Assembly (NCBI GenBank): GCA_031972295.1
Contig: DALYEZ010000002.1
Coordinates: 9,596-73,595 of the forward strand
DNA length: 64,000 nucleotides
Origin: Minisyncoccota bacterium
GTDB lineage: Bacteria; Patescibacteriota; Minisyncoccia; Phycocordibacterales; UBA5272
Reading direction: 5' to 3'
This document shows positions 9,808-64,000 of this stretch, piece after piece. Positions within the stretch are counted from its first letter, which is position 1; each line of letters begins with the position of its first letter. The position numbers and the translations under genes were made by a program. A model generated the notes under the pieces. It had not been told where the DNA came from. It made no database searches and was given only the letters and a program-made list of their open reading frames with translations.

Positions 9808-10254
9808 ATGATATATTTGGGGTATATGAAGTATCTTGCCATTGATTATGGAAAGAAAAAGATTGGTATCGCAACATCAGACGATGGGGGCGAGATGGCG
9901 TTTCCGTGTATGGTGATAGAAAATAATAAGATGCTTCTCACTGAGGTAAAACAATTATGTAAAGAGCTCAAAATTGGAGCGATTGTGATAGGCGAGTCAC
10001 TTGATCAAAATGGTAAACCAAATGCAATTGCAAAAGATGCTCGGGCATTTGCGGTTTTACTTGAAGATACACTCGACTTACCACTTTCATTTGAAAAAGA
10101 ATGGATGACAAGTGTGCATGCGCGCGCTATGCAGGAGGGAAAAGAAATTGTTGATGACTCCGCGGCCGCACTTATTTTGCAGCGCTATTTAGACAAGAAA
10201 AATAAAGTCGTGGCAAAAGACGATGAAGAGGCGGAGGAAGAAGAAGCTGAATAA
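9808..10254 (+). CDS. ruvX: Holliday-junction resolvase-like / pre-16S rRNA nuclease YqgF (RuvX)
   Basis: MKYLAIDYGKKKIGIATSD ... GAIVIGESLD ... KEWMTSVHA pattern of the RuvX/YqgF family, plus an acidic tail. Alternative start at 9826. Confidence 0.75.
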   Translation: MIYLGYMKYLAIDYGKKKIGIATSDDGGEMAFPCMVIENNKMLLTEVKQLCKELKIGAIVIGESLDQNGKPNAIAKDARAFAVLLEDTLDLPLSFEKEWMTSVHARAMQEGKEIVDDSAAALILQRYLDKKNKVVAKDDEEAEEEEAE

Positions 10255-10259
10255 AAATT

Positions 10260-10595
10260 ATGGAACACATTACAATAGATGATTTTGCAAAGGTAAAAAT
10301 CCAAGTCGGACTAATTCTTGGCGCCGAAATAATTGAGGAGAGTGAGAAGTTGTTGAAACTCACAGTTGATTTTGGAGAAGAAGGCCCACGACAGGTGCTT
10401 TCGGGCATACGTGCCTTTATGGCACTCGACGAACTTGTAGGGCGAAAGTATTTATTTGTGACAAACTTACAGCCTCGCATGATGGTGGGAATGGAAAGTC
10501 AGGCGATGATTTTAGGAAGTGGCGGCGGAGATGAGCCGTTCTCTCTTTTTGCACCCGTTAATGACGAAAGTCTGCCGGGGGCGCTCATCCGGTAG
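10260..10595 (+). CDS. tRNA-binding domain protein (CsaA/Myf-like)
   Basis: 111-aa OB-fold pattern shared with the MetRS C-terminus/CsaA: KVKIQVGLILGAEII...KLLKLTVDFGEEGPRQVLSGI...LVGRKYLFVTNLQPRMMVG. Confidence 0.65.
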   Translation: MEHITIDDFAKVKIQVGLILGAEIIEESEKLLKLTVDFGEEGPRQVLSGIRAFMALDELVGRKYLFVTNLQPRMMVGMESQAMILGSGGGDEPFSLFAPVNDESLPGALIR

Positions 10596-10598
10596 TGT

Positions 10599-11204
10599 AT
10601 GCTTTCTCGTCTCAAGGCTTGGTATGAAAGAATGGAAGAAAGGGTAAAGCGTGCCATGCATAGTAAGCATGCTTTCAGGACACTTTTTGTTGTTGCGTAC
10701 TTAGAAAACTTTTTCTCTCCGATTCCGGCTGATATTTTAGTCGCACCACTTGCGGTGCATCATCCAGATAAAAAATGGCGTATTGTGCTGCATGCTACAC
10801 TTGCCTCTGTGCTCGGATCTCTCACTGGCTACGCAATTGGGTATTTCTTGTTTCAATCTGTGGGAATGCCGATTGTGAATTGGTATGGTGGTGAAAATGC
10901 ATTTGCTTCATTTAAGGAGATATTTGATACATATGGCTTCGTAGCGCTTCTTGTGGTTGCATTTACACCACTTCCTGACAAAGTCTTTACTTTGCTTTCA
11001 GGTCTTGTGGCGACACCACTTATTCCTTTTATTCTTGCTATGGCGCTCGGGCGAATGTTTCGATTTGGGATTGTTGCGTATCTTGCCGCAACCTACGGGA
11101 GGGGGGCGTATTCATTTTTACGGAATAAGTTTGGCACTGTTACATTTATTTTTTCTGCCATCATAATTACAATAATCCTCTTTTATCATTTTGCGGTACA
11201 ATAA
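10599..11204 (+). CDS. YqaA/DedA-like membrane protein
   Basis: YLENFFSPIPADILVAPLAV...LGSLTGYAIGYF matches the YqaA (COG1238) signature; 4-5 TM helices. Confidence 0.55.
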   Translation: MLSRLKAWYERMEERVKRAMHSKHAFRTLFVVAYLENFFSPIPADILVAPLAVHHPDKKWRIVLHATLASVLGSLTGYAIGYFLFQSVGMPIVNWYGGENAFASFKEIFDTYGFVALLVVAFTPLPDKVFTLLSGLVATPLIPFILAMALGRMFRFGIVAYLAATYGRGAYSFLRNKFGTVTFIFSAIIITIILFYHFAVQ

Positions 11205-26239: not shown

Positions 26240-26356
26240 GTACTTGACTTACTATGTATAAATGTGGTTTAAAGTTAAAAGCTCTTTAAACAAAGTTTAT
26301 TAGTTTGCCATAGCTTTAAGTGTTTATCTTTGAACTTTTAAAGCTATGGCAAACTA
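26239..26356 (+). promoter_or_regulatory. conserved upstream block (GTACTTGAC...TATAAATGTG) + 19-bp perfect-stem hairpin leader; a homologous copy sits at 30438..30554
   Basis: Direct comparison of the two copies; see findings. Confidence 0.5.
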
Positions 26357-26399
26357 GAGATCACAACGATCAAAGGCGACTAGCATAAGGAGCAACGCC

Positions 26400-26990
26400 A
26401 TGTCCAAAGACATGACCCTGCAACAAATCGACAAAGCAGTAGGAAACTACCGGGCAATGCTGGTGAAGCATACCGACAGCTTTCCAGCCGATGCTGTTCA
26501 ATCAGTACTTGGAGATCGCAACTTCGCTGCAGAGCAGTTCAGACTCTTCCGTGCGCGAGTCGAGGCTTGCTCAGGCATCATCATCCGCGACTTCACCGTT
26601 GACCTCAATCTCGTGGGCATGCGAGCAATCAGTGCGACTGGTTGCGTGAAGCATGTGAATGAGCACGTAGCGGAAACCATGCCCCGCGCAACTGTCTCTG
26701 AGGGCAAGTTGTATTTCTTCCAAATCGGTCGTGCCACACCGGCTGATAAAGTGGAAGCTGGGTACGCCAAACGCGGACTGATCCCCGTTGATCCACACAC
26801 GCTGTGTGCCTTCAATGCAGCCAACCAAGAATTTGCCGATACCCACCACAACGGCACCCAATGGAAAGATGAGAACGCCAACATCTGCCGTATGGGTTTC
26901 GGTAGGTGGAGCGGCATGCGCCGCGTGTACGTCGGCCGGAACGGCTATGGCTGGGACGACGGCTGGTGGTTCGCCGGTGTCAGCAAGTAA
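26400..26990 (+). CDS. orphan hypothetical protein, compositionally foreign (GC about 54% vs about 40% in flanks)
   Basis: Strong RBS AAGGAG 7 nt before the ATG. C/G-ending codon bias. Antisense ORFs 26498..26917 and 26571..26861 are GC artefacts. Followed by terminators at 27003-27027 and 27093-27122. Confidence 0.5.
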   Translation: MSKDMTLQQIDKAVGNYRAMLVKHTDSFPADAVQSVLGDRNFAAEQFRLFRARVEACSGIIIRDFTVDLNLVGMRAISATGCVKHVNEHVAETMPRATVSEGKLYFFQIGRATPADKVEAGYAKRGLIPVDPHTLCAFNAANQEFADTHHNGTQWKDENANICRMGFGRWSGMRRVYVGRNGYGWDDGWWFAGVSK

Positions 26991-27159
26991 GCTCTTTGGA
27001 CTGAGGCCTCAGGACTTTTGTTCCTTAGGCCTTTGTCAAAAAAAGTTGGAAGAATAGCTATAAACTTCCATACCTCCGCTGCGTCTTGCAACGGAGTTTT
27101 TATTTTTGTAGTCACACAGTACCCATCAAACCGTTACAAGAGGTATATACTATATTAAT

Positions 27160-30554: not shown

Positions 30555-30580
30555 AAATTTCTAAAACGATGGAGAAGACC

Positions 30581-31072
30581 ATGCTTAAGCGACATACAGA
30601 GCAAGATGTCATTACAATCGAACGTTCCGAACCTTTCAGCCCATCTACTTTTGAGGGCCGTGACTTGTCTATCGGTGAGCAAGACGAACGGTCGCTGGTA
30701 CTTTCTGAAGTGGATCGGAGAATGATCTTTCCTCTGGGAATAGTGAGCCTCGCTGAAAGGTCTGCTAGGGGGGAAGATGTGCTAAAACGGCTCAAATCCA
30801 AAAAGCACATTCGTCTAGACGCCAAGATTGGGGAGGTACTCTGGAAAGACTACGCGCTCAATAAGGAGAACAGTATCCTTGAGTGGTTACGTCTAAAGAA
30901 ATTGATCAGATTTCTCCCTTTTATGGGAACTGTCCTGGAGGATCTGAATGGTCGTCGATTGGTATTCTGTTTGTTTTGGTGGGAAGCGGAATGGTCTAGT
31001 TCCTTTCGGTTTCTGGAAGACCAATGGAGCACCTTACAGCCACCGGTCTGCTTATTTGTGTCCAAGAGCTAG
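30581..31072 (+). CDS. orphan hypothetical protein downstream of leader copy 2
   Basis: GGAG 6 nt upstream of ATG 30581 (alternative ATG at 30569). GC about 46%. Terminator AACTCCGATGCGTCGCATCGGAGTTTT at 31107-31135. Coding status less certain than for the 26400 ORF. Confidence 0.35.
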   Translation: MLKRHTEQDVITIERSEPFSPSTFEGRDLSIGEQDERSLVLSEVDRRMIFPLGIVSLAERSARGEDVLKRLKSKKHIRLDAKIGEVLWKDYALNKENSILEWLRLKKLIRFLPFMGTVLEDLNGRRLVFCLFWWEAEWSSSFRFLEDQWSTLQPPVCLFVSKS

Positions 31073-34988: not shown

Positions 34989-35339
34989 ATGAAAGAAACA
35001 AAGAAAAAAGTTCTCAAACGAGCACGACGTCACGCACGAATTCGAACAGAAATCGTGGGTACTGAGGCACGTCCACGACTTTCTGTTTTTCGTTCAAATA
35101 AATTTATCTACGCACAAGTTATTGATGATGCAAAAGGGGTAACACTCGCTGCGGCATCAGATGCAGGTCTTGATAAAGGAACAAAAGTAGAAAAAGCAAA
35201 AGCGGTAGGAAAGCTCGTTGCAGAAGCTGCAAAAAAGGCAAAAATTACTAAAGTAGTATTTGATCGAGGAGGATTCTTGTACAAAGGTCGTGTGCAAGCA
35301 CTCGCAGATGGCGCCCGAGAGGGAGGTTTGGAATTCTAA
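34989..35339 (+). CDS. rplR: 50S ribosomal protein L18
   Basis: [18 protein letters not shown]...[27 protein letters not shown]. Confidence 0.9.
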
Positions 35340-35344
35340 AAAAT

Positions 35345-36139
35345 ATGACTGAACAAACAACACAAACAACAGAAGGTGGAGCTCCAGTAGTTCCTGTAGC
35401 ACAAACAGCAGCACCTCGTCCTCCAATGGGTGGTTTTAGAGGAGCTCCTCGTCCAGGTGGTGCAGGCGGAACACGCCCTCCATTCCGACGTGGCGGCTTT
35501 TCAGGCGGTCCTCGTCGTCCAGGCGGTCCAGTAACTGCCGGTGGCCCACAAGGTCAAGGTGGTGCGCGTGGCGGCTTTAGATCAGGTGGCCCAGGTGGTC
35601 GCCCAGGTCAAGGTGGAGGAAGAAGCGGTGGAGGTCGTTTTCAAGAACGTCGCCCTTCAGAATTTGAGCAAAAGATGATTGATATTCGTCGTGTAACTCG
35701 TGTAGTTGCCGGTGGTCGTCGATTTAGTTTCTCAGTATCGCTTGTTGCTGGTGATCGCAATGGTCGCGTTGGATTTGGTATGGGAAAAGCTACCGACACA
35801 TCACTTGCTATCGAAAAAGCATTCAAGCAGGCTCGTAAGAACATGCTCACACTCCGTCTTACAAAGACAAAATCTATTCGACATGACCTTTCAGCAAAAT
35901 TTGGTAGCGCTTCAGTTACGATGATGCCAAACAAAGGTCGAGGTCTTATTGCGGGAAGTTCGGCTCGTGTTGTGCTTGCGTTTGCTGGTGTAAAAGATGT
36001 AACTGCAAAGTATCACTCTGGCACCAAGAACAAAATTAACAACGCAAAAGCTGCAATTGCCGCTCTTTCGCAAATTGCATACAGACATGGTGAAGCACCA
36101 GTGCGTAAGGTAGAATTAAAGACAGAAGGAGAGCAATAA
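35345..36139 (+). CDS. rpsE: 30S ribosomal protein S5 with an approximately 100-aa N-terminal Gly/Arg/Pro-rich extension
   Basis: Core uS5 from IDIRRVTRVVAGGRRFSFS...GMGKA...TLRL. The extension runs GGFRGAPRPGGAGGTRPPFRRGGFSGGPRRPGG.... Confidence 0.9.
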   Translation: MTEQTTQTTEGGAPVVPVAQTAAPRPPMGGFRGAPRPGGAGGTRPPFRRGGFSGGPRRPGGPVTAGGPQGQGGARGGFRSGGPGGRPGQGGGRSGGGRFQERRPSEFEQKMIDIRRVTRVVAGGRRFSFSVSLVAGDRNGRVGFGMGKATDTSLAIEKAFKQARKNMLTLRLTKTKSIRHDLSAKFGSASVTMMPNKGRGLIAGSSARVVLAFAGVKDVTAKYHSGTKNKINNAKAAIAALSQIAYRHGEAPVRKVELKTEGEQ

Positions 36140-52330: not shown

Positions 52331-55300
52331 ATGTCATATCATCAATCGTATAGAACCATTCAGGCAATGTTTCCGTTGAGGGTAGTGGTTTTAGTAGTAA
52401 TCTTTTCTCTAACTTTCTCACCACTCACTCCTCTTTTAGCCCAAGAGGTTTCAGATTCTACTAGTATCTCTGTAGGAGAAACAAGTTCACAAGTACCCCT
52501 TCCTGTTGATACCGAAATGGCCACGTCTCACGAGTCCCTGCAGGCTATTCTCCCAGAAATTAATCCAGATATAGAGCAAACTACAGATTCTGAAGTAGTT
52601 GTTGATGAATTATCTAAAGACGGTACTGAAAAAGAAACCACCTTGCAACCTTCTGCTGGTAATTCTGCGACTGCCTCACTTGCTTCGAATAGTGACTCAG
52701 GAAAAGTAATTAGGCCTAACATTGACCAATCGACAGGGGCTCTTATTTATGACTATCCAATGGAAACTCCAAATGGATTTAACCAGCAAAATCCGAATTT
52801 AAAACTCACATATAATTCTCAGGATGTAAAAAATGATTCAGTATTTGGTTACGGATGGAATGTTTCAATTCCATATATTGAAAGAGTTAATAAACATGGG
52901 GTCAATGACTTTTATTCTGGAGACGGTATTGATTTTGCTTCATCTGTGTTTGGTGAATTAGTTCAAAAAACCACTACAACATATGTGCCAAAATCAGCAT
53001 CTGATATTGTTTTGATTTCTTTTGTAAATAATGTGTGGACATACATAGATAAAGAGGGTACTACATACGTGTATGGATTAACTTCTGCTGGACGTCAGGA
53101 TGACCCCTCCAACTCAGCACATATCTACAAGTGGATGCTTACTTCAGTAACTGATTCGAATGGAAACAGTATTAGCTATACGTACACTAAGGATCAAGGA
53201 CAAATTTACCCTGACACAGTTAATTATGGGGGGATATATCAGATTGCTTTTGTAAAGGTTGTACGTGGAGAAACCATTGAATCGTATAAGCCAGGCTTTT
53301 TAGTTGCAACTACAGAGATAATTAATGAAATACAGTTAAAGGTCTCTGGAGTATTGAAAAAAAAATATGCTTTTACATATACGCAGGGAGACAATGCGAG
53401 TCGATCAATTTTAAACTCAGCGCAAATCTCCGTATATGATTCTTCAAATAATTTAGCAGTGCAGCCCACTACAACCTTTAGTTACTCAATTCGTTCGACA
53501 CCAAACTGGAACACCTCATCCAATATCACGTTTCCTCCAGGTACGAATCTCCTCAATGGGCATTCCATAGCAGTTGATTTTAATGGTGATGGATATACTG
53601 ATATTCTTACTTCTTTCGCAGATCCGAATTCAATTACCACTCAGGTAGCATATATAAATAATGGTGATGGAACATGGGCAACATCAACCGCATATACACC
53701 ACCGGTAATTTTTTATTACGACAGCGGGGCTGGTTTGAGTAAAGGCTACACTACACTTGATCTTAATGGAGATCAGCTCCCAGAGCTTTTTAGGTCGGTG
53801 ATGGAATGTAATGGTGTGGTTTGTGGGAATAGTTCAGTTATTTATATCAACACAGGAAGTGGTTGGGTATCAAGTACAGATACTATCCCAGTAGGTCTTC
53901 TTTATCTTGGGAGCCCAATAGCAGACATGGCTGATTTTAATGGTGACGGTTTAGTAGATATTTATTCTTCGGCAAGAAATTTCAATGGAAATAATTTTCC
54001 TAGAAAAGTATATCTTAATAATGGTGATGGTACCTGGCTTGATGACACCGCAGCGTGGACATTTCCTTACAGTTCAGGTTCAAGGTCTATCTATACCGAT
54101 CTTAATGGGGATGGGATAAGTGATATTATCTTTGATAATTGGTATTACACAGGGGGTGCTTGTAATTGCACAACATATAACCCAAATAATAGGGCATATA
54201 TTGGAGATGGTAAGGGGGCATATGTGGCCTCAATAAGCTATATCTCACCATACTCATATAGTTCATATCCAGCGGGTCAACCGAGTCCTGGCTATGACTG
54301 GGGTAACAGAGTATTTGATATAAATAATGATGGACTTGTCGATCTTGTGTATGGAACTAACCCTTCAGGAGTTGGAACTGTAAGAAGTTCTACTTATGTT
54401 AATACAAGTAATATTTGGTCCTTAGATATCCCATCGTTGGTATTACCGTCATCTATTTTGAAATTTAGTGATAACGGAAATTTTACAATTGGAAATCCAT
54501 TAGATATGGACGCTGATGGCATTCAGGAAATTTATTATCAAACAACTATTTTTAAAAACCAGAGCGCAAAGCATACCGATCTTCTTTCTACTATTACTAT
54601 GCCAAGTGGAGGTACGGTGGCTATTGCATATCAATCAAGTGGTAAATATAAAGATTTAAATGGAAACCTTTTGAACGCACAACTTCCATTTGCTGTGCAA
54701 ACAGTGCGGTCAATAACAACTACAGATCCAGTCGCTAGTGTTGTAGGCACTTCAAGCTACACCTATTCGGGCGGTGTATATTACTATGCCACGCCTTCTG
54801 ATCGAAAGTTTGCTGGTTTTGAAAAAGTATCAGAATCTAGACCAGACGGAAGTGTTGTCGTAAACTACTATCATCAAGGCAACGGAACAAATAACAGTAA
54901 TTATGAATACAATGATAGTGTGGGAAAAATTGGTTATGTATATCGCACCGATATTGTAAATAGTTCTGGAACTATCCAAGCTCGATCAACGACTAAGTAT
55001 AATTCAATCAATACAGTAACGGGGGCATATTATGTATATCCGACTCAAACAGTTGATGAAATGAACGGAAAGAATACTGCTACCGCGTACATCTATGACA
55101 CAACAACAGGGAATCTTTCGAGTAGTCTTGAATATGGAAAGGTTGTGGTGACCGACCCACTTACTTTCACCGATGCTGGTTTGGATATTAAGTCGACTGA
55201 GTATACTTATGCCACAGATGCATCGTCAACAACTTACAAAGTTTCTAGTAAAGCAACATATGATCAGGTGGGTACCAAGGTAAACGAGACTAAATATTAT

Positions 55301-58300
55301 TACGATATGTTAGCGTTTGGTTCATTGGCGGTCGGCAATAATACCAAAGTCTCACAACTGAAGACGGGAAGTACGTTTATTGATAGTGTCCAAAAAACGT
55401 ACAACAGTTATGGGCACATTACCTCAAGTACTGATGCTCGAAATAAAACAACGCAATTGGGATATGATACAAACAATTTGTATATCGCAACCGTTACTAA
55501 TCCTTTATTGCAAGTGATGAGGTATGTATATGAGTACAATACAGGTAAACCGACGGAGGTTATTGATCAAAATGGATTCACATACCGAACTTCATACGAT
55601 GGTCTTGGGAGAGTTCTGAGTGAAACAATACCTGACGCGTATGGCACGAGTGTTACAAAAACCCTCTATACGTACACAGACATTCCAAATGCGGTATCCG
55701 TACAAAAAACAGATTATCTCAATGATCATAATGGAGTCGAAACATATCAGTATTTCGATGGCCTTAATCGGCTTGTGCAAGAAAGAAAAGAGGCTGAAGT
55801 GGCAGGGACGTTTAATGTTCGGGATATAAGATATAACAATATTGCTTTAGTGGAAAGTGAATCATTGCCGTATGTTGCCACAGGGGCAGGAAAAACAAGT
55901 CCAACAAAAAATGCAGCACTCTACACTACGAACACATATGATCCATTGCAACGAGTTACTGCTATTACAAATAGTATTGGTGTTACGAGTAATATTTATA
56001 ATGATTGGAAGACCACCGTCACAGATCCGAATGGCAAAGTAAAAAAGTATTATAAAGATGCTTACAATAATTTGGTAAAAGTTGATGAAGTAAATGGTAG
56101 TGCAACTTATTCGACAAATTACACTTGGAATCTAAATAATAAACTCACAAATATCACTGATGCACTTGGAAATGTTCGTAACTTCACATACGACGGACTC
56201 GGACAACGTCTGACTGCCGAAGATTTGCACAATCCCGCGGACACATCTTTTGGTACTTGGACGTACGTTTATGATCTAGCGGGTAATCTTACTCAAACAC
56301 ATAATCCAGAAAATAAAATCGTACATTATACATACGATGATATTAATCGCGTAAAAACAGAAAATTATATTAATGAGACAGGAATAGAAATAGCATACGA
56401 TTACGATACGTGTCCTAATGGAGTAGGAAAACTTTGTACCGTGACACAATCAACATCAAAAGTTGTGTTTGAATATACCCCATCGGGATTAGTAAGTAAG
56501 GAAAACAGAGAAATTCATAAATCTCTTTTCTCAACCTCATTCTTGTATGACAGACAGGGAAACGTTGTACAGAGCGTGAGTCCGGATCAGGATACATTCT
56601 ATCGTAACTATAACAACGCAGGACTTCTTGAAAAAATACAATATGGTCAAGCGGGAATGAAGTCAATGATGCGTACCATTGTTGATGATTTAGATTACTC
56701 ACCGGTAGGTCAAATTACTTACCAGAAAAACGGTAATAGTACAGAGACTGTGAATACCTATGATTCTAGTAAGTTGTATCGTCTTACAAACAAAATTACT
56801 ACAACTTTGAATAACTCTCCAAGTGGACATAAAAGAGTAAACGCACTGGTAGTAGGAGGTGGTGGTGGTGTAAGTGGTGGCACTGGCGGTGGCGGTGCAG
56901 GTGGATATCAAGCAAGTACTACCTTAGCAGTACTTGCTCAAGCTTATCCTATTACAGTAGGGGCAGGCGGATCTGGATTTAATAATGGTGGGAACTCGAT
57001 CTTCAGCACTCTTACTGCCTTAGGTGGCGGGGCAGCTTCCGACGGCTTCAGTTCTGGTCAAAATGGAGGTTCTGGTGGCGGTGGTTACGGACAGTTTGTT
57101 CCGCAAGGTAATGGTGGTGCTGGAAATGTAGGGCAAGGAAATAGTGGTGGAAATGGATTTGGTATGGGGAGCGCAACTACAGCAGGAGGCGGTGGCGGTG
57201 CATCAACTGCAGGAACTAATGCTTCTTCAGGACAAGGAGGAAATGGGGGAAATGGTGTAGTTAATTCTATTTCAGGATCTTCTGTTGTTTATGCAGGAGG
57301 TGGGGCAGGCAGGGCTATCATAGGTATAAACGGAATTCCTGGAACAGGTGGTGGAGGAGCTGTTGGAAGTAACGGTATAGACGGATTGGGAGGCGGTGGC
57401 GGTGGACAAGTCGCAGGAGTTGATACTAAGGGTGGATCTGGTGTTGTTATTATTGCATACCGTACAGATGGAAGTGATGGGGTACTAAATACTTCTACAG
57501 GAGGTGTAAAGACAACGTCTGGTGCGTACACTATACATACCTTTACAGGTAATGGAATTTTTACAGTAAATCCTCCATCAAATGGCAGTGCTCGTATCCA
57601 AGATATCAGTTACACCTACGACAATAATGGCAACATTACACAGATAGTAGACGCTTCAGATACAGCAGGAGCGAAAACGGTTACGTACACATATGATGAC
57701 CTTAATAGAATGCTTTCAGCTACGGCTACTAATGTTGCTTCTGGACAAAGTGGATATACGTACAACTACACGTATGATGCGATTGGAAATATCACAAATG
57801 GCCCTGTGGGAGCGTATGTTTACAACGGTATAAGTGCCTCTAATTGGGCAAATCCTCATGCTGCAACTTCAATTGCTGGAACTATTCTTACGTATGATAA
57901 AAGTGGCAACATGCTTTCTGATGAGGTGCTTACAAATACGTGGAACTACAAGCAGCAACTTGTGCAAGTAGAGAAAGATAAAAATACTTTTGAGTACACC
58001 TATGATCATGAAGGAAATCGTCTGCGAGTAATGAGTGATGGAGAAGATACATATTATCCAAATAAGTTCTACAGCGTTGACGTATCTGATAAAAGAACAA
58101 AAAATGTTTTTGCGGGCGACCAACTAGTTGCAACTATTGAAACGAGCACTTCGGCTAATAACATATTTTATAACCACACCGACCACCTTGGTTCTGTGAA
58201 TGTGGTGACTGATGCATCTGGTACTCAAACAAATCTTCTCGACTACTTCCCATACGGATCAAAAAGAATTGAAAGTGGTACTAACGTTGGGGAGAGAGAA

Positions 58301-59083
58301 TTCATCGGACAAATATTTGATGATGAAAGTGGTTTAAGTTATCTGAATGCACGGTATTACGATGGGAATCGAGGACGGTTTATTAGTCAGGATCCATTGC
58401 ATTGGGACATGTCCCAGGAGTATCTCGTAGATCCGCAGCAGATGAATAGTTACAGCTATGGAAGAGGTAATCCACTCAAATATATTGACCCTAATGGAAA
58501 GAAAGTAGAGTTAGTTGTTCGTCCCGTATTCACAAAATATGATGGGCATCTTTTCTACCATATTACCCCTGAGAATCCCGATCAAATTAATGTAAATGGA
58601 GTTCCTGCTGGAACTAAAGAATTTAGTATAGGGGGTTACAATAGGGGGGGATTTCTTGGTATTGGCAATAAATTAACACCTGAGATTGGTTACGAGGGAG
58701 GACAAGCTTCAAACACAGATCTACCTTATCTTCTTGGTCAGAAAGAAGCAACAGCAAGAATTACCATCATGTCTCCAGAAGGGCAATCTGATACTGATTT
58801 TATAAATGCTTTAGGCACATCTGCGAATAATGTTAATAAAGAAAGCTATTTCACTTTCGGTCAAAGATTAAAATTTGGAAACGCAAATTCTAACAATTTT
58901 GCTCATGAAATTGGGTCTCAGGTTGGAGTGGGGGATCAAGTTACAGAATTTAGCAGTCTTATGACAAATAAAATTTATATTCCAGGTGGTGATAGAGGTT
59001 TACCGACAAACTCATTGCGTCAGATGATTAGACAAGGAATTGACCAAACAGGTAAGCAAATCAGTAAATTGTTCAAAAACTAA
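52331..59083 (+). CDS. giant secreted polymorphic toxin: SpvB-like domain + FG-GAP/VCBS-type repeats + RHS/YD repeats + RHS repeat-associated core + variable C-terminal domain
   Basis: Signal peptide. SpvB block NPNLKLTYNSQDVKNDSVFGYGWNVSIPYIERV...DFYSGDGIDFASSVFGELV. Six DxNGDG-type repeats (DFNGDGYTDIL, DLNGDQLPELF, DFNGDGLVDIY, DLNGDGISDII, DINNDGLVDLV, DMDADGIQEIY). More than 15 YD repeats (YTYDxxGN). RHS core ...NARYYDGNRGRFISQDPL...DPNGK, followed by an approximately 195-aa non-repetitive C-terminus. Confidence 0.85.
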   Translation: MSYHQSYRTIQAMFPLRVVVLVVIFSLTFSPLTPLLAQEVSDSTSISVGETSSQVPLPVDTEMATSHESLQAILPEINPDIEQTTDSEVVVDELSKDGTEKETTLQPSAGNSATASLASNSDSGKVIRPNIDQSTGALIYDYPMETPNGFNQQNPNLKLTYNSQDVKNDSVFGYGWNVSIPYIERVNKHGVNDFYSGDGIDFASSVFGELVQKTTTTYVPKSASDIVLISFVNNVWTYIDKEGTTYVYGLTSAGRQDDPSNSAHIYKWMLTSVTDSNGNSISYTYTKDQGQIYPDTVNYGGIYQIAFVKVVRGETIESYKPGFLVATTEIINEIQLKVSGVLKKKYAFTYTQGDNASRSILNSAQISVYDSSNNLAVQPTTTFSYSIRSTPNWNTSSNITFPPGTNLLNGHSIAVDFNGDGYTDILTSFADPNSITTQVAYINNGDGTWATSTAYTPPVIFYYDSGAGLSKGYTTLDLNGDQLPELFRSVMECNGVVCGNSSVIYINTGSGWVSSTDTIPVGLLYLGSPIADMADFNGDGLVDIYSSARNFNGNNFPRKVYLNNGDGTWLDDTAAWTFPYSSGSRSIYTDLNGDGISDIIFDNWYYTGGACNCTTYNPNNRAYIGDGKGAYVASISYISPYSYSSYPAGQPSPGYDWGNRVFDINNDGLVDLVYGTNPSGVGTVRSSTYVNTSNIWSLDIPSLVLPSSILKFSDNGNFTIGNPLDMDADGIQEIYYQTTIFKNQSAKHTDLLSTITMPSGGTVAIAYQSSGKYKDLNGNLLNAQLPFAVQTVRSITTTDPVASVVGTSSYTYSGGVYYYATPSDRKFAGFEKVSESRPDGSVVVNYYHQGNGTNNSNYEYNDSVGKIGYVYRTDIVNSSGTIQARSTTKYNSINTVTGAYYVYPTQTVDEMNGKNTATAYIYDTTTGNLSSSLEYGKVVVTDPLTFTDAGLDIKSTEYTYATDASSTTYKVSSKATYDQVGTKVNETKYYYDMLAFGSLAVGNNTKVSQLKTGSTFIDSVQKTYNSYGHITSSTDARNKTTQLGYDTNNLYIATVTNPLLQVMRYVYEYNTGKPTEVIDQNGFTYRTSYDGLGRVLSETIPDAYGTSVTKTLYTYTDIPNAVSVQKTDYLNDHNGVETYQYFDGLNRLVQERKEAEVAGTFNVRDIRYNNIALVESESLPYVATGAGKTSPTKNAALYTTNTYDPLQRVTAITNSIGVTSNIYNDWKTTVTDPNGKVKKYYKDAYNNLVKVDEVNGSATYSTNYTWNLNNKLTNITDALGNVRNFTYDGLGQRLTAEDLHNPADTSFGTWTYVYDLAGNLTQTHNPENKIVHYTYDDINRVKTENYINETGIEIAYDYDTCPNGVGKLCTVTQSTSKVVFEYTPSGLVSKENREIHKSLFSTSFLYDRQGNVVQSVSPDQDTFYRNYNNAGLLEKIQYGQAGMKSMMRTIVDDLDYSPVGQITYQKNGNSTETVNTYDSSKLYRLTNKITTTLNNSPSGHKRVNALVVGGGGGVSGGTGGGGAGGYQASTTLAVLAQAYPITVGAGGSGFNNGGNSIFSTLTALGGGAASDGFSSGQNGGSGGGGYGQFVPQGNGGAGNVGQGNSGGNGFGMGSATTAGGGGGASTAGTNASSGQGGNGGNGVVNSISGSSVVYAGGGAGRAIIGINGIPGTGGGGAVGSNGIDGLGGGGGGQVAGVDTKGGSGVVIIAYRTDGSDGVLNTSTGGVKTTSGAYTIHTFTGNGIFTVNPPSNGSARIQDISYTYDNNGNITQIVDASDTAGAKTVTYTYDDLNRMLSATATNVASGQSGYTYNYTYDAIGNITNGPVGAYVYNGISASNWANPHAATSIAGTILTYDKSGNMLSDEVLTNTWNYKQQLVQVEKDKNTFEYTYDHEGNRLRVMSDGEDTYYPNKFYSVDVSDKRTKNVFAGDQLVATIETSTSANNIFYNHTDHLGSVNVVTDASGTQTNLLDYFPYGSKRIESGTNVGEREFIGQIFDDESGLSYLNARYYDGNRGRFISQDPLHWDMSQEYLVDPQQMNSYSYGRGNPLKYIDPNGKKVELVVRPVFTKYDGHLFYHITPENPDQINVNGVPAGTKEFSIGGYNRGGFLGIGNKLTPEIGYEGGQASNTDLPYLLGQKEATARITIMSPEGQSDTDFINALGTSANNVNKESYFTFGQRLKFGNANSNNFAHEIGSQVGVGDQVTEFSSLMTNKIYIPGGDRGLPTNSLRQMIRQGIDQTGKQISKLFKN

Positions 59084-59625: not shown

Positions 59626-59629
59626 TTTG

Positions 59630-60050
59630 TGGAGATGGGGGGAATCGAACCCCCGTGCATAGAAATCTAGGATGTGTAGGTCTACAATGCGTAGCGGCAT
59701 TCTTGCCTTCTCGAAGGAAGGCTAACAATGAGACGTGGTGAACGACGCAAGAATCGTCTCATCGGTCACTGCGTATTTAAATCTGAAAGTGCAGTGAGGC
59801 TTTCAGATCGAGTGTACGATGTATAATCGTTACCTTTCTACGATACACGAGCGTATAAAGGAACGCTTGGCAGAAGTCTGCAGAGCAGAGTCTTACGCAA
59901 GAGCAAAAGCACGAGCCTCACTTGCGTAAGGTGATGCGATTGCTGTGTAGCTTTTAGCTGCACTACTTTTTTGTATACTGAGTACGAGGAAATATACTTC
60001 TCGGCACTGCGTACACACAAGATAAACCATGTCGATGCCAGGTCATCCCC
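59630..60050 (-). ncRNA. ssrA: tmRNA (SsrA), standard one-piece
   Basis: The minus-strand 5' end GGGGATGACCTGGCATCGACATGG matches the tmRNA consensus GGGGnUGAnnnnGGnUUCGACnnGG. The 3' end ACGGGGGTTCGATTCCCCCCATCTCC-A is a tRNA-like T arm + acceptor with the G3:U pair. It sits immediately downstream of smpB on the same strand. Putative tag frame ends ...EARAFALA-TAA. Confidence 0.8.
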
Positions 60051-63422: not shown

Positions 63423-63605
63423 GCCTTTACTCCTTAGGTGGAGCTTTTCATTTGGAAACAAAAGAGAAGCGCCATTTTGAGTCGAGTGCGTTGTTTGACA
63501 AATACATATCAAAAACAAGAAATGTAATATACGTTCTTTAAACCCGAACGTAGTATTACAAAAACAAAAAGTATATTTTATTTTTTGCCTCGATTTATTT
63601 CAAAA

Positions 63606-64000
<395 letters not shown>

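Follow-up and report, generated by a model that had tools for sequence, protein, structure and literature searches.

In diversity-generating retroelements (DGRs), a reverse transcriptase (RT) and its partner Avd copy the RNA of a template repeat (TR) into cDNA, misincorporating nucleotides opposite adenines. The cDNA then overwrites a variable region (VR) at the 3' end of a target gene, guided by a constant end, the initiation of mutagenic homing (IMH) site, and by a hairpin downstream of it. [quoted passage not shown] Here, we analyze a gene at positions 26400 to 26990 of a 64,000-nt stretch (the window) of contig DALYEZ010000002.1 from a Minisyncoccota bacterium. An earlier note, made from the letters alone, had taken this gene for a compositionally foreign orphan. 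Our analysis suggests, with a probability of roughly 0.8, that it is a detached target gene of a DGR, and its membership in a family of such genes is more secure still. What had been an unexplained foreign orphan would thereby become interpretable, as the receiving part of a system for hypermutation that belongs to a CPR bacterium with a reduced genome.

In the CPR, DGRs are documented as the "CPR set" of Wu et al. 2018 (PMC5758913) and as DGR clade 2 of Roux et al. 2021 (PMC8144416). The CPR/DPANN systems resemble the family described below in their host group, in the target-TR-Avd-RT layout found in relatives of the window gene, in adenine-specific differences between VR and TR, in an AAC-rich TR, and in a VR placed at the C terminus of a small protein without known domains; the window copy differs from them in having no cassette nearby. 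Wu et al. reported single targets in the CPR and remote targets only elsewhere, namely, in Treponema and other lineages (PMC5758913). In the DGRs of Treponema denticola (TvpA) and Legionella pneumophila, one RT/TR cassette serves several targets in trans, some of them far away, and every target comes with an IMH and an inverted repeat downstream (PMC5758913, PMC3240598). The targets in question, which belong to ordinary bacteria, are lipoproteins or surface proteins with VRs of recognized C-type-lectin (CLec) or formylglycine-generating-enzyme (FGE) types, whereas the window protein belongs to a family of about 200 amino acids (aa), has no evident signal peptide and no Pfam domain, and is encoded in a reduced CPR genome. 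Moreover, action in trans, which we infer for the window gene, is shown only in a related metagenome-assembled genome (MAG). The Mtd DGR of Bordetella phage BPP-1 is similar in having its VR at the 3' end, a GC-rich IMH that differs from the corresponding IMH* of the TR, and a homing hairpin (PMC3240598). In contrast to it, the window gene is not phage-borne (there are no relatives in IMG/VR, and the neighbors are housekeeping genes) and has no detectable sequence similarity to Mtd, and the IMH and IMH* of its family are told apart by a single G or C after GCAA and by divergent downstream sequence.

The protein family and its cassettes

The 196-aa window protein had no match in Pfam, PHROGs, NCBIfam or PADLOC, in agreement with the earlier note, which had recognized no family. 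Pfam searches with 46 family members gave scattered chance matches only, and a profile search against PDB sequences found nothing below E = 0.4. The gene is, however, no orphan. A word-indexed search retrieved 12 relatives at 42 to 67% identity, and when 1.84 billion cluster representatives were searched exhaustively with HMMER, 930 matched at E ≤ 1e-3, 519 of them at E ≤ 1e-10. Nearly all matches were about 200 aa long and full-length, and the profile E values of family members ranged from 1e-50 to 1e-90 (1e-87 for the window protein). Those members that carry a name are listed as "hypothetical protein" of Candidatus Paceibacteria and Nomurabacteria. When one genome per species was scanned at the DNA level, the family was confined almost wholly to MAGs of Patescibacteria/CPR; matches in high-GC phyla were bare matches to the DNA pattern without a family gene, and a scan of IMG/VR found no viral relatives of the target gene. 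Two loci labeled "uncultured Gammaproteobacteria" (L026 and L042) have a family gene in DNA of 0.37 to 0.41 GC and are probably CPR contigs that were mis-binned or mislabeled. With about 930 representative clusters, a confidently predicted fold and no Pfam entry, the family merits a definition of its own.

The connection to DGRs came from the relatives. The most distant of the first 12 (L005) has a bAvd gene and an RVT_1 reverse transcriptase as neighbors. The final 111 nt of the L005 target gene recur 306 nt downstream with 85% identity, and of the 17 mismatches, 15 are at adenines of this second copy. Three other loci on long contigs (L012, L014 and L015) are laid out as target, TR, small open reading frame (ORF) or Avd, and RT, and their VR/TR mismatches lie at TR adenines in 13/13, 16/16 and 13/16 cases, respectively. 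Among 67 family genes from GTDB genomes, 35 were followed by a local TR with adenine-specific mismatches 300 to 440 nt after the stop codon; the RT usually came after this TR, at +670 to +900. Besides L005, L012, L014 and L015, about 31 further members have a cognate TR and, for the most part, an RT. By virtue of these adenine-specific differences and of the target-TR-Avd-RT layout, the family is one of DGR variable proteins.

The 39 TRs compared (from L005 to L105) consist of near-identical nucleotides across distant hosts, with at least 90% support in most columns, and the target proteins that they service are only about 40% identical. The template appears to be under much stronger constraint at the nucleotide level than the gene it services. 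Several loci displayed multitarget or split layouts, supposedly a rarity in the CPR: L019 has two target genes with one common TR, L032 has two targets and no TR within 5.6 kb, and L075 and L088 each have a TR but no target in about 7 kb upstream, with an RT detected in L075 only.

The variable region of the window gene and the missing cassette

We next compared codon variability among five close relatives, namely, the window gene and those of L004, L006, L009 and L010 (L005 was excluded). Upstream of the VR, pairwise differences at codon positions 1, 2 and 3 amounted to 0.17, 0.12 and 0.40, respectively, a pattern that points to purifying selection on this part of the window gene. In the last 27 codons before TGGTGGTTC, the corresponding values were 0.32, 0.38 and 0.07. 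Thus, the approximately 80 nt ahead of the constant end, which runs from TGGTGGTTC to GCAAG, vary at the first two codon positions and not at the third. The shift between the VR and the upstream part was significant in Fisher tests for position 3 (p = 8e-7) and for positions 1 and 2 taken together (p = 6e-5). Mutagenesis of AAY codons produces an inverted pattern of this kind. Within the same five genes, 86% of the columns at adenines of the L005 TR were variable, as opposed to 20 to 28% at T, G or C.

The window VR itself bears the same mark. Aligned with foreign TRs, it mismatched at 15 of 26 adenines and at 5 of 63 other positions (p = 1.4e-6). When the TR came from L053, which is the nearest complete DGR to the window subfamily, the mismatches fell on 19 of 28 adenines and on 7 of 53 other positions (p = 1.9e-6). 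At third positions, the window gene differed from each relative by 47 to 52% upstream and by only 4 to 15% in the VR, which is what repeated overwriting of VRs by conserved TRs would produce. The base after GCAA was G in 27 of 28 VRs, C in 24 of 28 TRs, and G in 28 of 29 cassette-less genes, including the window gene, whose end reads GCAAGTAA and thus has the recipient (IMH) form.

The 64-kb window contains no TR-like repeat and, in searches with tblastn and hidden Markov models, neither RT nor Avd; RT, Avd and TR were likewise absent from 8 kb to the left (L106, the same contig) and from 6.6 kb to the right (L109, a 99.95%-identical sister assembly), so that about 78 kb was covered in total (the window plus about 15 kb). 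In addition, two scans of metagenomes that looked for variants of the gene among strains came back empty, and the copies on record are all identical. The absence of a nearby RT and Avd rules out a complete local cassette and is compatible with a remote target, which is a recognized arrangement (PMC5758913). No cassette was found beside the four closest relatives where flank was available (for L004, 5.7 kb downstream), and of the 67 family genes, 19 were without TR or RT over a downstream flank of 2.5 kb or more.

The exact protein was recorded from the NCBI contig (DALYDE010000002.1, assembly GCA_031973375.1), from SRR6410602 and from one further similar place. The SRR6410602 copy (L002) lies on a 10.2-kb Logan contig that stops 78 nt past the stop codon of the target gene. 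A break at this point would be expected beside a hypervariable region if the population were heterogeneous there, and is only suggestive. The same species is present in SRR4000971 and SRR4000976, where the recovered pieces (L107 and L108) lie about 24 kb upstream and fall short of the target locus.

Service in trans could be followed in a Taylorbacteria MAG, JARIGY01. One of its contigs (L049) carries a target with its TR, and another (L090) carries a cassette-less paralog that is 57% identical in protein sequence, has unrelated flanks and lacks a TR over 814 nt. Between the L090 VR and the L049 TR there are 13 differences, every one of them at a TR adenine, and none at the 73 non-A positions. 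The cassette-less paralog has thus been diversified in trans, with the caveat that the two contigs are linked through a single metagenomic bin.

The window contains only the recipient half of a DGR, comprising the gene, its VR (26883-26963), the IMH (26964-26990) and the hairpins. The donor half (TR, Avd and RT) would lie elsewhere in the genome and service the window gene in trans, and the product is likely to be a hypervariable ligand-binding protein. We infer that such a cassette exists in the source genome and is active now; diversification in trans, now or in the recent past, seems to us somewhat more probable than not when set against loss of the system. In the latter case, the gene would be a fossil that descends from a DGR target, has lost its RT/TR cassette and is now fixed in sequence, with a VR signature of historical origin only. 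The empty 78 kb and the lack of recorded VR variants fit this account, as does the GC content at third codon positions (GC3) of the window gene, which is the lowest of its subfamily (0.635 versus 0.70 to 0.75) and could mean that amelioration has begun. Decayed copies occur: the L003 member (positions 10001 to 10705) has a TTG start, a 26-residue N-terminal deletion and no GCAAG IMH end, and with a gene GC of 0.437 in a host of 0.405, it looks like an orphaned and ameliorated target. The window ORF, however, is intact and under apparent purifying selection, and it has kept a recipient-type IMH and hairpins with compensatory changes, which would erode once service was lost, as happened in L003. 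Its VR third positions are also far less diverged than the remainder of the gene, and a related MAG has a cassette-less copy that was serviced in trans. On balance, we regard a fossil as rather unlikely.

DGRs of the CPR may diversify more loci than have been catalogued, contrary to the "single target" picture (Wu et al. 2018), because 19 of the 67 family genes are cassette-less and one such gene is demonstrably serviced in trans. Cassette-less targets are invisible to standard DGR finders because these anchor on the RT and look nearby. Roux et al. state this limitation openly, and remote targets were undetectable for them (PMC8144416). Cassette-less, trans-serviced targets in the CPR appear to have no earlier description in the DGR literature that we compared.

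GC excess and the question of transfer

The earlier note had been drawn to the gene by its composition, and exact counts upheld its description. The ORF has a GC content of 0.555, compared to 0.414 for the window. In a profile of sliding 591-bp windows (mean, 0.414; standard deviation, 0.030), it stands about 4.7 standard deviations above the mean and forms the highest peak of the 64 kb. The gene exceeds its host by 14 GC points. Its GC contents at codon positions 1, 2 and 3 are 0.589, 0.442 and 0.635; the preference for C and G at third positions is thus real (host GC3, about 0.33). All other long real genes of the window have a GC3 of 0.24 to 0.42, with the exception of 30569-31072 (0.52). 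The rise of GC along the ORF that had been counted by hand was also found: the initial 99 nt have a GC of 0.495, and the final 96 nt have one of 0.656, with GC3 reaching 0.844 there. The longest alternative frame within the ORF spans 148 codons, compared with 122 ± 25 in codon-shuffled controls. Since this length is within the expectation for a GC3-rich gene, the overlapping ORFs are compositional artifacts, as had been proposed.

The excess is shared by the family. At loci chosen by protein similarity, the gene was 13 to 22 GC points above its surroundings, except for L003 (+3). The 67 family genes had a mean GC of 0.566 versus 0.429 for their hosts, and 72% exceeded the host by more than 0.10, although 58 of these genes came from a scan with a GC-rich DNA pattern, which calls for caution about their composition. 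In a meta-profile of 53 genes, the GC excess was −0.07 to +0.04 in the flanks and +0.07 to +0.21 in the gene deciles; GC3 was 0.61 to 0.69 in the body and about 0.78 in the VR deciles. The excess is confined to the coding sequence (CDS) and ends at its edges. It also stops short of the rest of the cassette. In 23 complete cassettes, the target had a GC3 of 0.66 and the RT, which lies only about 0.8 kb away, had a GC3 of 0.42 at a host GC of 0.43. Target GC3 was the higher of the two in 20 of the 23 (paired p = 8e-6). Across these cassettes, GC3 followed host GC closely in the RT (r = 0.92) but hardly in the target (r = 0.30).

The extreme 3' values (66% GC and 84% GC3) reflect the design of the TR from AAC codons together with the loss of adenines by mutagenesis: inside the VR, the third-position frequency of A (A3) is 0.04 and that of C (C3) is 0.50 to 0.56, and codons derived from AAC explain why GC exceeds 60% near the end of the gene. 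The gene-wide excess is a different matter. A footprint of adenine mutagenesis was rejected as its cause, as both A3 and T3 are depleted and C3 is enriched outside the VR. Upstream third positions in the family comprise 0.16 A, 0.38 C, 0.26 G and 0.20 T, compared to 0.31 A, 0.155 C, 0.154 G and 0.38 T in the host; in the window gene, A3 and T3 outside the VR are 0.21 each. Translational selection typical of the host was also rejected, on the comparison with ribosomal protein genes that the earlier note had suggested, since the GC3 of such genes in the window is only 0.24 to 0.26. The notion that a DGR requires GC-richness was weakened by L059, L065 and L024, which have active-looking VR/TR pairs at a gene GC of 0.40 to 0.46. 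The gene-wide excess is a trait of the family, and a gene-specific force (selection or biased repair), exchange of modules among CPR genomes, or both may account for it.

The history of the locus bears on this choice. In the diverged sister genome L006, the target gene occupies the same locus, where it likewise follows the FAD-oxidase gene (80% aa identity). Compared between the window and L006, third positions diverge by 0.52 in the oxidase and by 0.48 in the target, and GC3 is 0.33 in the oxidase gene of the window and 0.63 to 0.70 in the two targets. This suggests long residence of the gene at the locus without amelioration, with third positions that may be near saturation leaving room for allelic replacement. 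No integrase, transposase or other mobility gene was found beside the target gene, whose neighbors are housekeeping genes, and no target-site duplications were seen around it. Together with its conserved flanks, the target module is present in three or more different genomic contexts, and distances between targets are only loosely coupled to those between RTs (Mantel r = 0.35; Spearman, 0.10). In L041 and L046, for example, the targets differ by 9% in protein sequence and the adjacent RTs by 26%, with RT GC3 values of 0.51 and 0.34, which suggests a recent exchange or replacement of the target independent of the RT. It is thus plausible that CPR genomes exchange target modules with one another.

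Extended to the window copy, this explanation holds that a module of about 0.8 kb, from the upstream motif to the terminator, circulates in the Patescibacteria independently of the RT, that its composition stems from GC-richer lineages, and that the window copy was imported. The several contexts of the module, the contrast between target and RT in their dependence on host GC, and the weak coupling of target and RT distances speak for it, as does the observation that in GC-rich CPR hosts (0.54 to 0.59) the GC of the gene equals that of the host. On the other hand, the syntenic copy in L006, with a divergence like that of the host neighbor, suggests long residence; mobility genes, target-site duplications and relatives in viral contigs of IMG/VR were all absent; and a pool held mostly in hosts of about 0.43 GC should drift toward AT unless its GC was maintained. 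We therefore give this explanation a tentative standing, below even odds. More doubtful, though related, is the proposal that self-contained modules of about 0.8 kb (promoter motif, gene, VR, IMH, hairpins and terminator) possess their own GC-rich, C-ending codon usage, independent of host and RT, and can be relocated or passed between genomes, being plugged into resident cassettes in trans, with their composition kept by a force connected with retrohoming or with their lifestyle. Under this proposal, the modules could be plugged into any resident cassette because TR and IMH are nearly invariant across the family. If it were true, the maintaining force, be it selection on DNA or RNA stability near the homing site, repair that favors GC, or constant reseeding, would amount to an undescribed rule of DGRs.

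The donor envisaged by the earlier note fared worse. A recent transfer of a true orphan from a high-GC donor outside the CPR would agree with the strong local anomaly in GC and GC3 and with the lack of a named family. Yet the family resides almost wholly in the Patescibacteria (even L026 and L042, labeled as Gammaproteobacteria, have a CPR-like host GC), a syntenic ortholog exists in L006, and in complete cassettes the RT next to the target has a composition like that of the host. Together with the restriction of the excess to the CDS and the absence of mobility genes, these results make an outside donor very improbable, and only the weaker idea of target-module exchange within the CPR, in keeping with the loosely coupled histories of target and RT, may survive. 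The earlier note had named CPR-wide homologs of normal composition as a finding that would refute it; half of this holds, since homologs do occur throughout the CPR, but most of them share the abnormal composition of the window gene. A structured GC-rich RNA or a chance ORF, for which GC richness is the sole argument, can be practically dismissed: divergence by codon position is of the coding type, protein homologs number in the hundreds, the predicted fold is confident, and an Rfam scan found no RNA family at the ORF. On this point the earlier note, which had called the ORF a genuine coding sequence, was right.

Wu et al. used atypical GC only as evidence for the transfer of whole DGRs (PMC5758913). 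An excess of GC and GC3 in the target that is bounded by the CDS, relative to both host and RT, appears to have no earlier description in the DGR literature compared. This excess is decoupled from the host, whereas the adjacent RT follows it, and an unusual GC content of DGR components should accordingly not be taken at face value as a sign of recent transfer; if it generalizes, it is a clue to an unrecognized constraint on DGR targets.

Predicted protein, flanking elements and other features of the window

An AlphaFold2 model built from an alignment of 53 sequences was very confident (pLDDT, 94.7; pTM, 0.86). It consists of three N-terminal helices (residues 7 to 58) followed by an alpha/beta domain (residues 60 to 196), the last strands of which are formed by the VR. 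By eye, the N terminus is charged, helical and nonhydrophobic, with no evident signal peptide. A Foldseek search of the PDB gave no significant match. The best-aligned structures were mostly C-type-lectin domains, led by rhodocetin (E = 0.075) and followed by BDCA2, LOX-1, CLEC5A, DCIR and langerin, and these alignments were weak (TM scores of 0.41 to 0.46, normalized to target length). The C-type-lectin fold is the class of the characterized DGR variable proteins (PMC5006420, PMC6328139). With two of these, AvpA (PMC5006420) and TaqVP (PMC6328139), the window protein shares the position of the VR in the last strands of the (here predicted) domain, and the weak matches suggest a possible likeness in fold. 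It differs from them in its additional N-terminal region of three helices; it had no sequence match in the PDB, and Foldseek did not retrieve the CLec structures of DGR proteins.

The gene is flanked by several conserved elements, which are listed in Table 1 together with the parts of the gene.

Table 1. Positions of the target gene, its parts and its flanking elements in the window
Feature	Position	Strand	Remarks
Upstream inverted repeat	26301..26356		24-nt arms, 92% complementary, 8-nt loop; between FAD-oxidase gene and target gene
Motif GCTATGGCAAACT	26343..26355	+	44 nt before ATG, in right arm of the repeat; conserved upstream
Shine-Dalgarno sequence AAGGAG	26387..26392	+	7 nt before ATG; read directly; relatives have (A)AGGAG, about 7 nt, then ATG
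Target gene CDS	26400..26990	+	ATG start, 196 aa; read from sequence and translation
VR	26883..26963	+	homologous to family TRs; adenine-mutagenesis signature
Constant 3' end of VR (IMH-like), TGGTGGTTCGCCGGTGTCAGCAAGTAA	26964..26990	+	includes stop codon; recipient form, GCAA then G
Hairpin 1, AGGCCTCAGGA / TCCTTAGGCCT	27004..27032	+	starts 14 nt after stop codon, downstream of VR
Hairpin 2, TTGGAAG ... CTTCCA	27046..27071	+	7 pairs; conserved with the gene in other contexts
Terminator-like GC stem CTCCG...CGGAG with T-run	27074..27109	+	end of conserved module

Downstream of the gene, hairpin 1 was kept in six loci (the window, L004, L006, L009, L010 and the complete DGR L053) with one compensatory pair change, C-G in the window and U-A elsewhere. 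Hairpin 2 had one compensatory change as well, from A-U to C-G in L010. Both hairpins and the terminator-like stem are common to the window and L053. A hairpin or GC-rich inverted repeat 3' of the IMH enhances homing of DGRs (PMC3240598, PMC5758913), but an inverted repeat beyond the IMH is found in only 34% of DGRs (Wu et al., PMC5758913), which makes it supportive rather than obligatory. Scans for sigma-70 promoters and simple terminators around the gene made no calls; the terminator scan missed the terminator-like stem because its loop exceeds the length allowed by the scan.

Upstream, both arms of the inverted repeat are present in the syntenic L006, with two mismatches. This repeat may be a terminator of the upstream gene or an operator or promoter element. 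The motif in its right arm, GCTATGGCAAACT, is identical and located 44 to 46 nt 5' of the ATG in L004, L006 and L010, has near-matches in L090 and L059, and accompanies the gene into other genomic contexts; it is probably a promoter or an element of the 5' untranslated region. L090 and L049, which come from one MAG, have in common an identical 53-nt upstream block that holds a similar motif. The motif and repeat may constitute a promoter or operator specific to the family.

Other regions of the window stood out less. A second compositional outlier at 30569-31072 on the positive strand is a 167-aa ORF (a 163-aa gene in the NCBI record) with a GC of 0.47 and no Pfam match; it has no known relation to the DGR family. 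The next GC peaks after the target gene were at 35261-35850 (0.53) and 56841-57430 (0.52). The former is inside the gene for ribosomal protein S5 and is driven by the first two codon positions, that is, by amino acid composition, and not by GC3; the latter falls within a 2,250-aa ORF at 52331-59083. Rfam placed a tmRNA gene at 59627-60050 on the negative strand, adjoining smpB, as well as seven tRNA genes in the window and a 16S rRNA gene at 63599-64000 on the positive strand, of which the first 369 nt are present before the end of the window.

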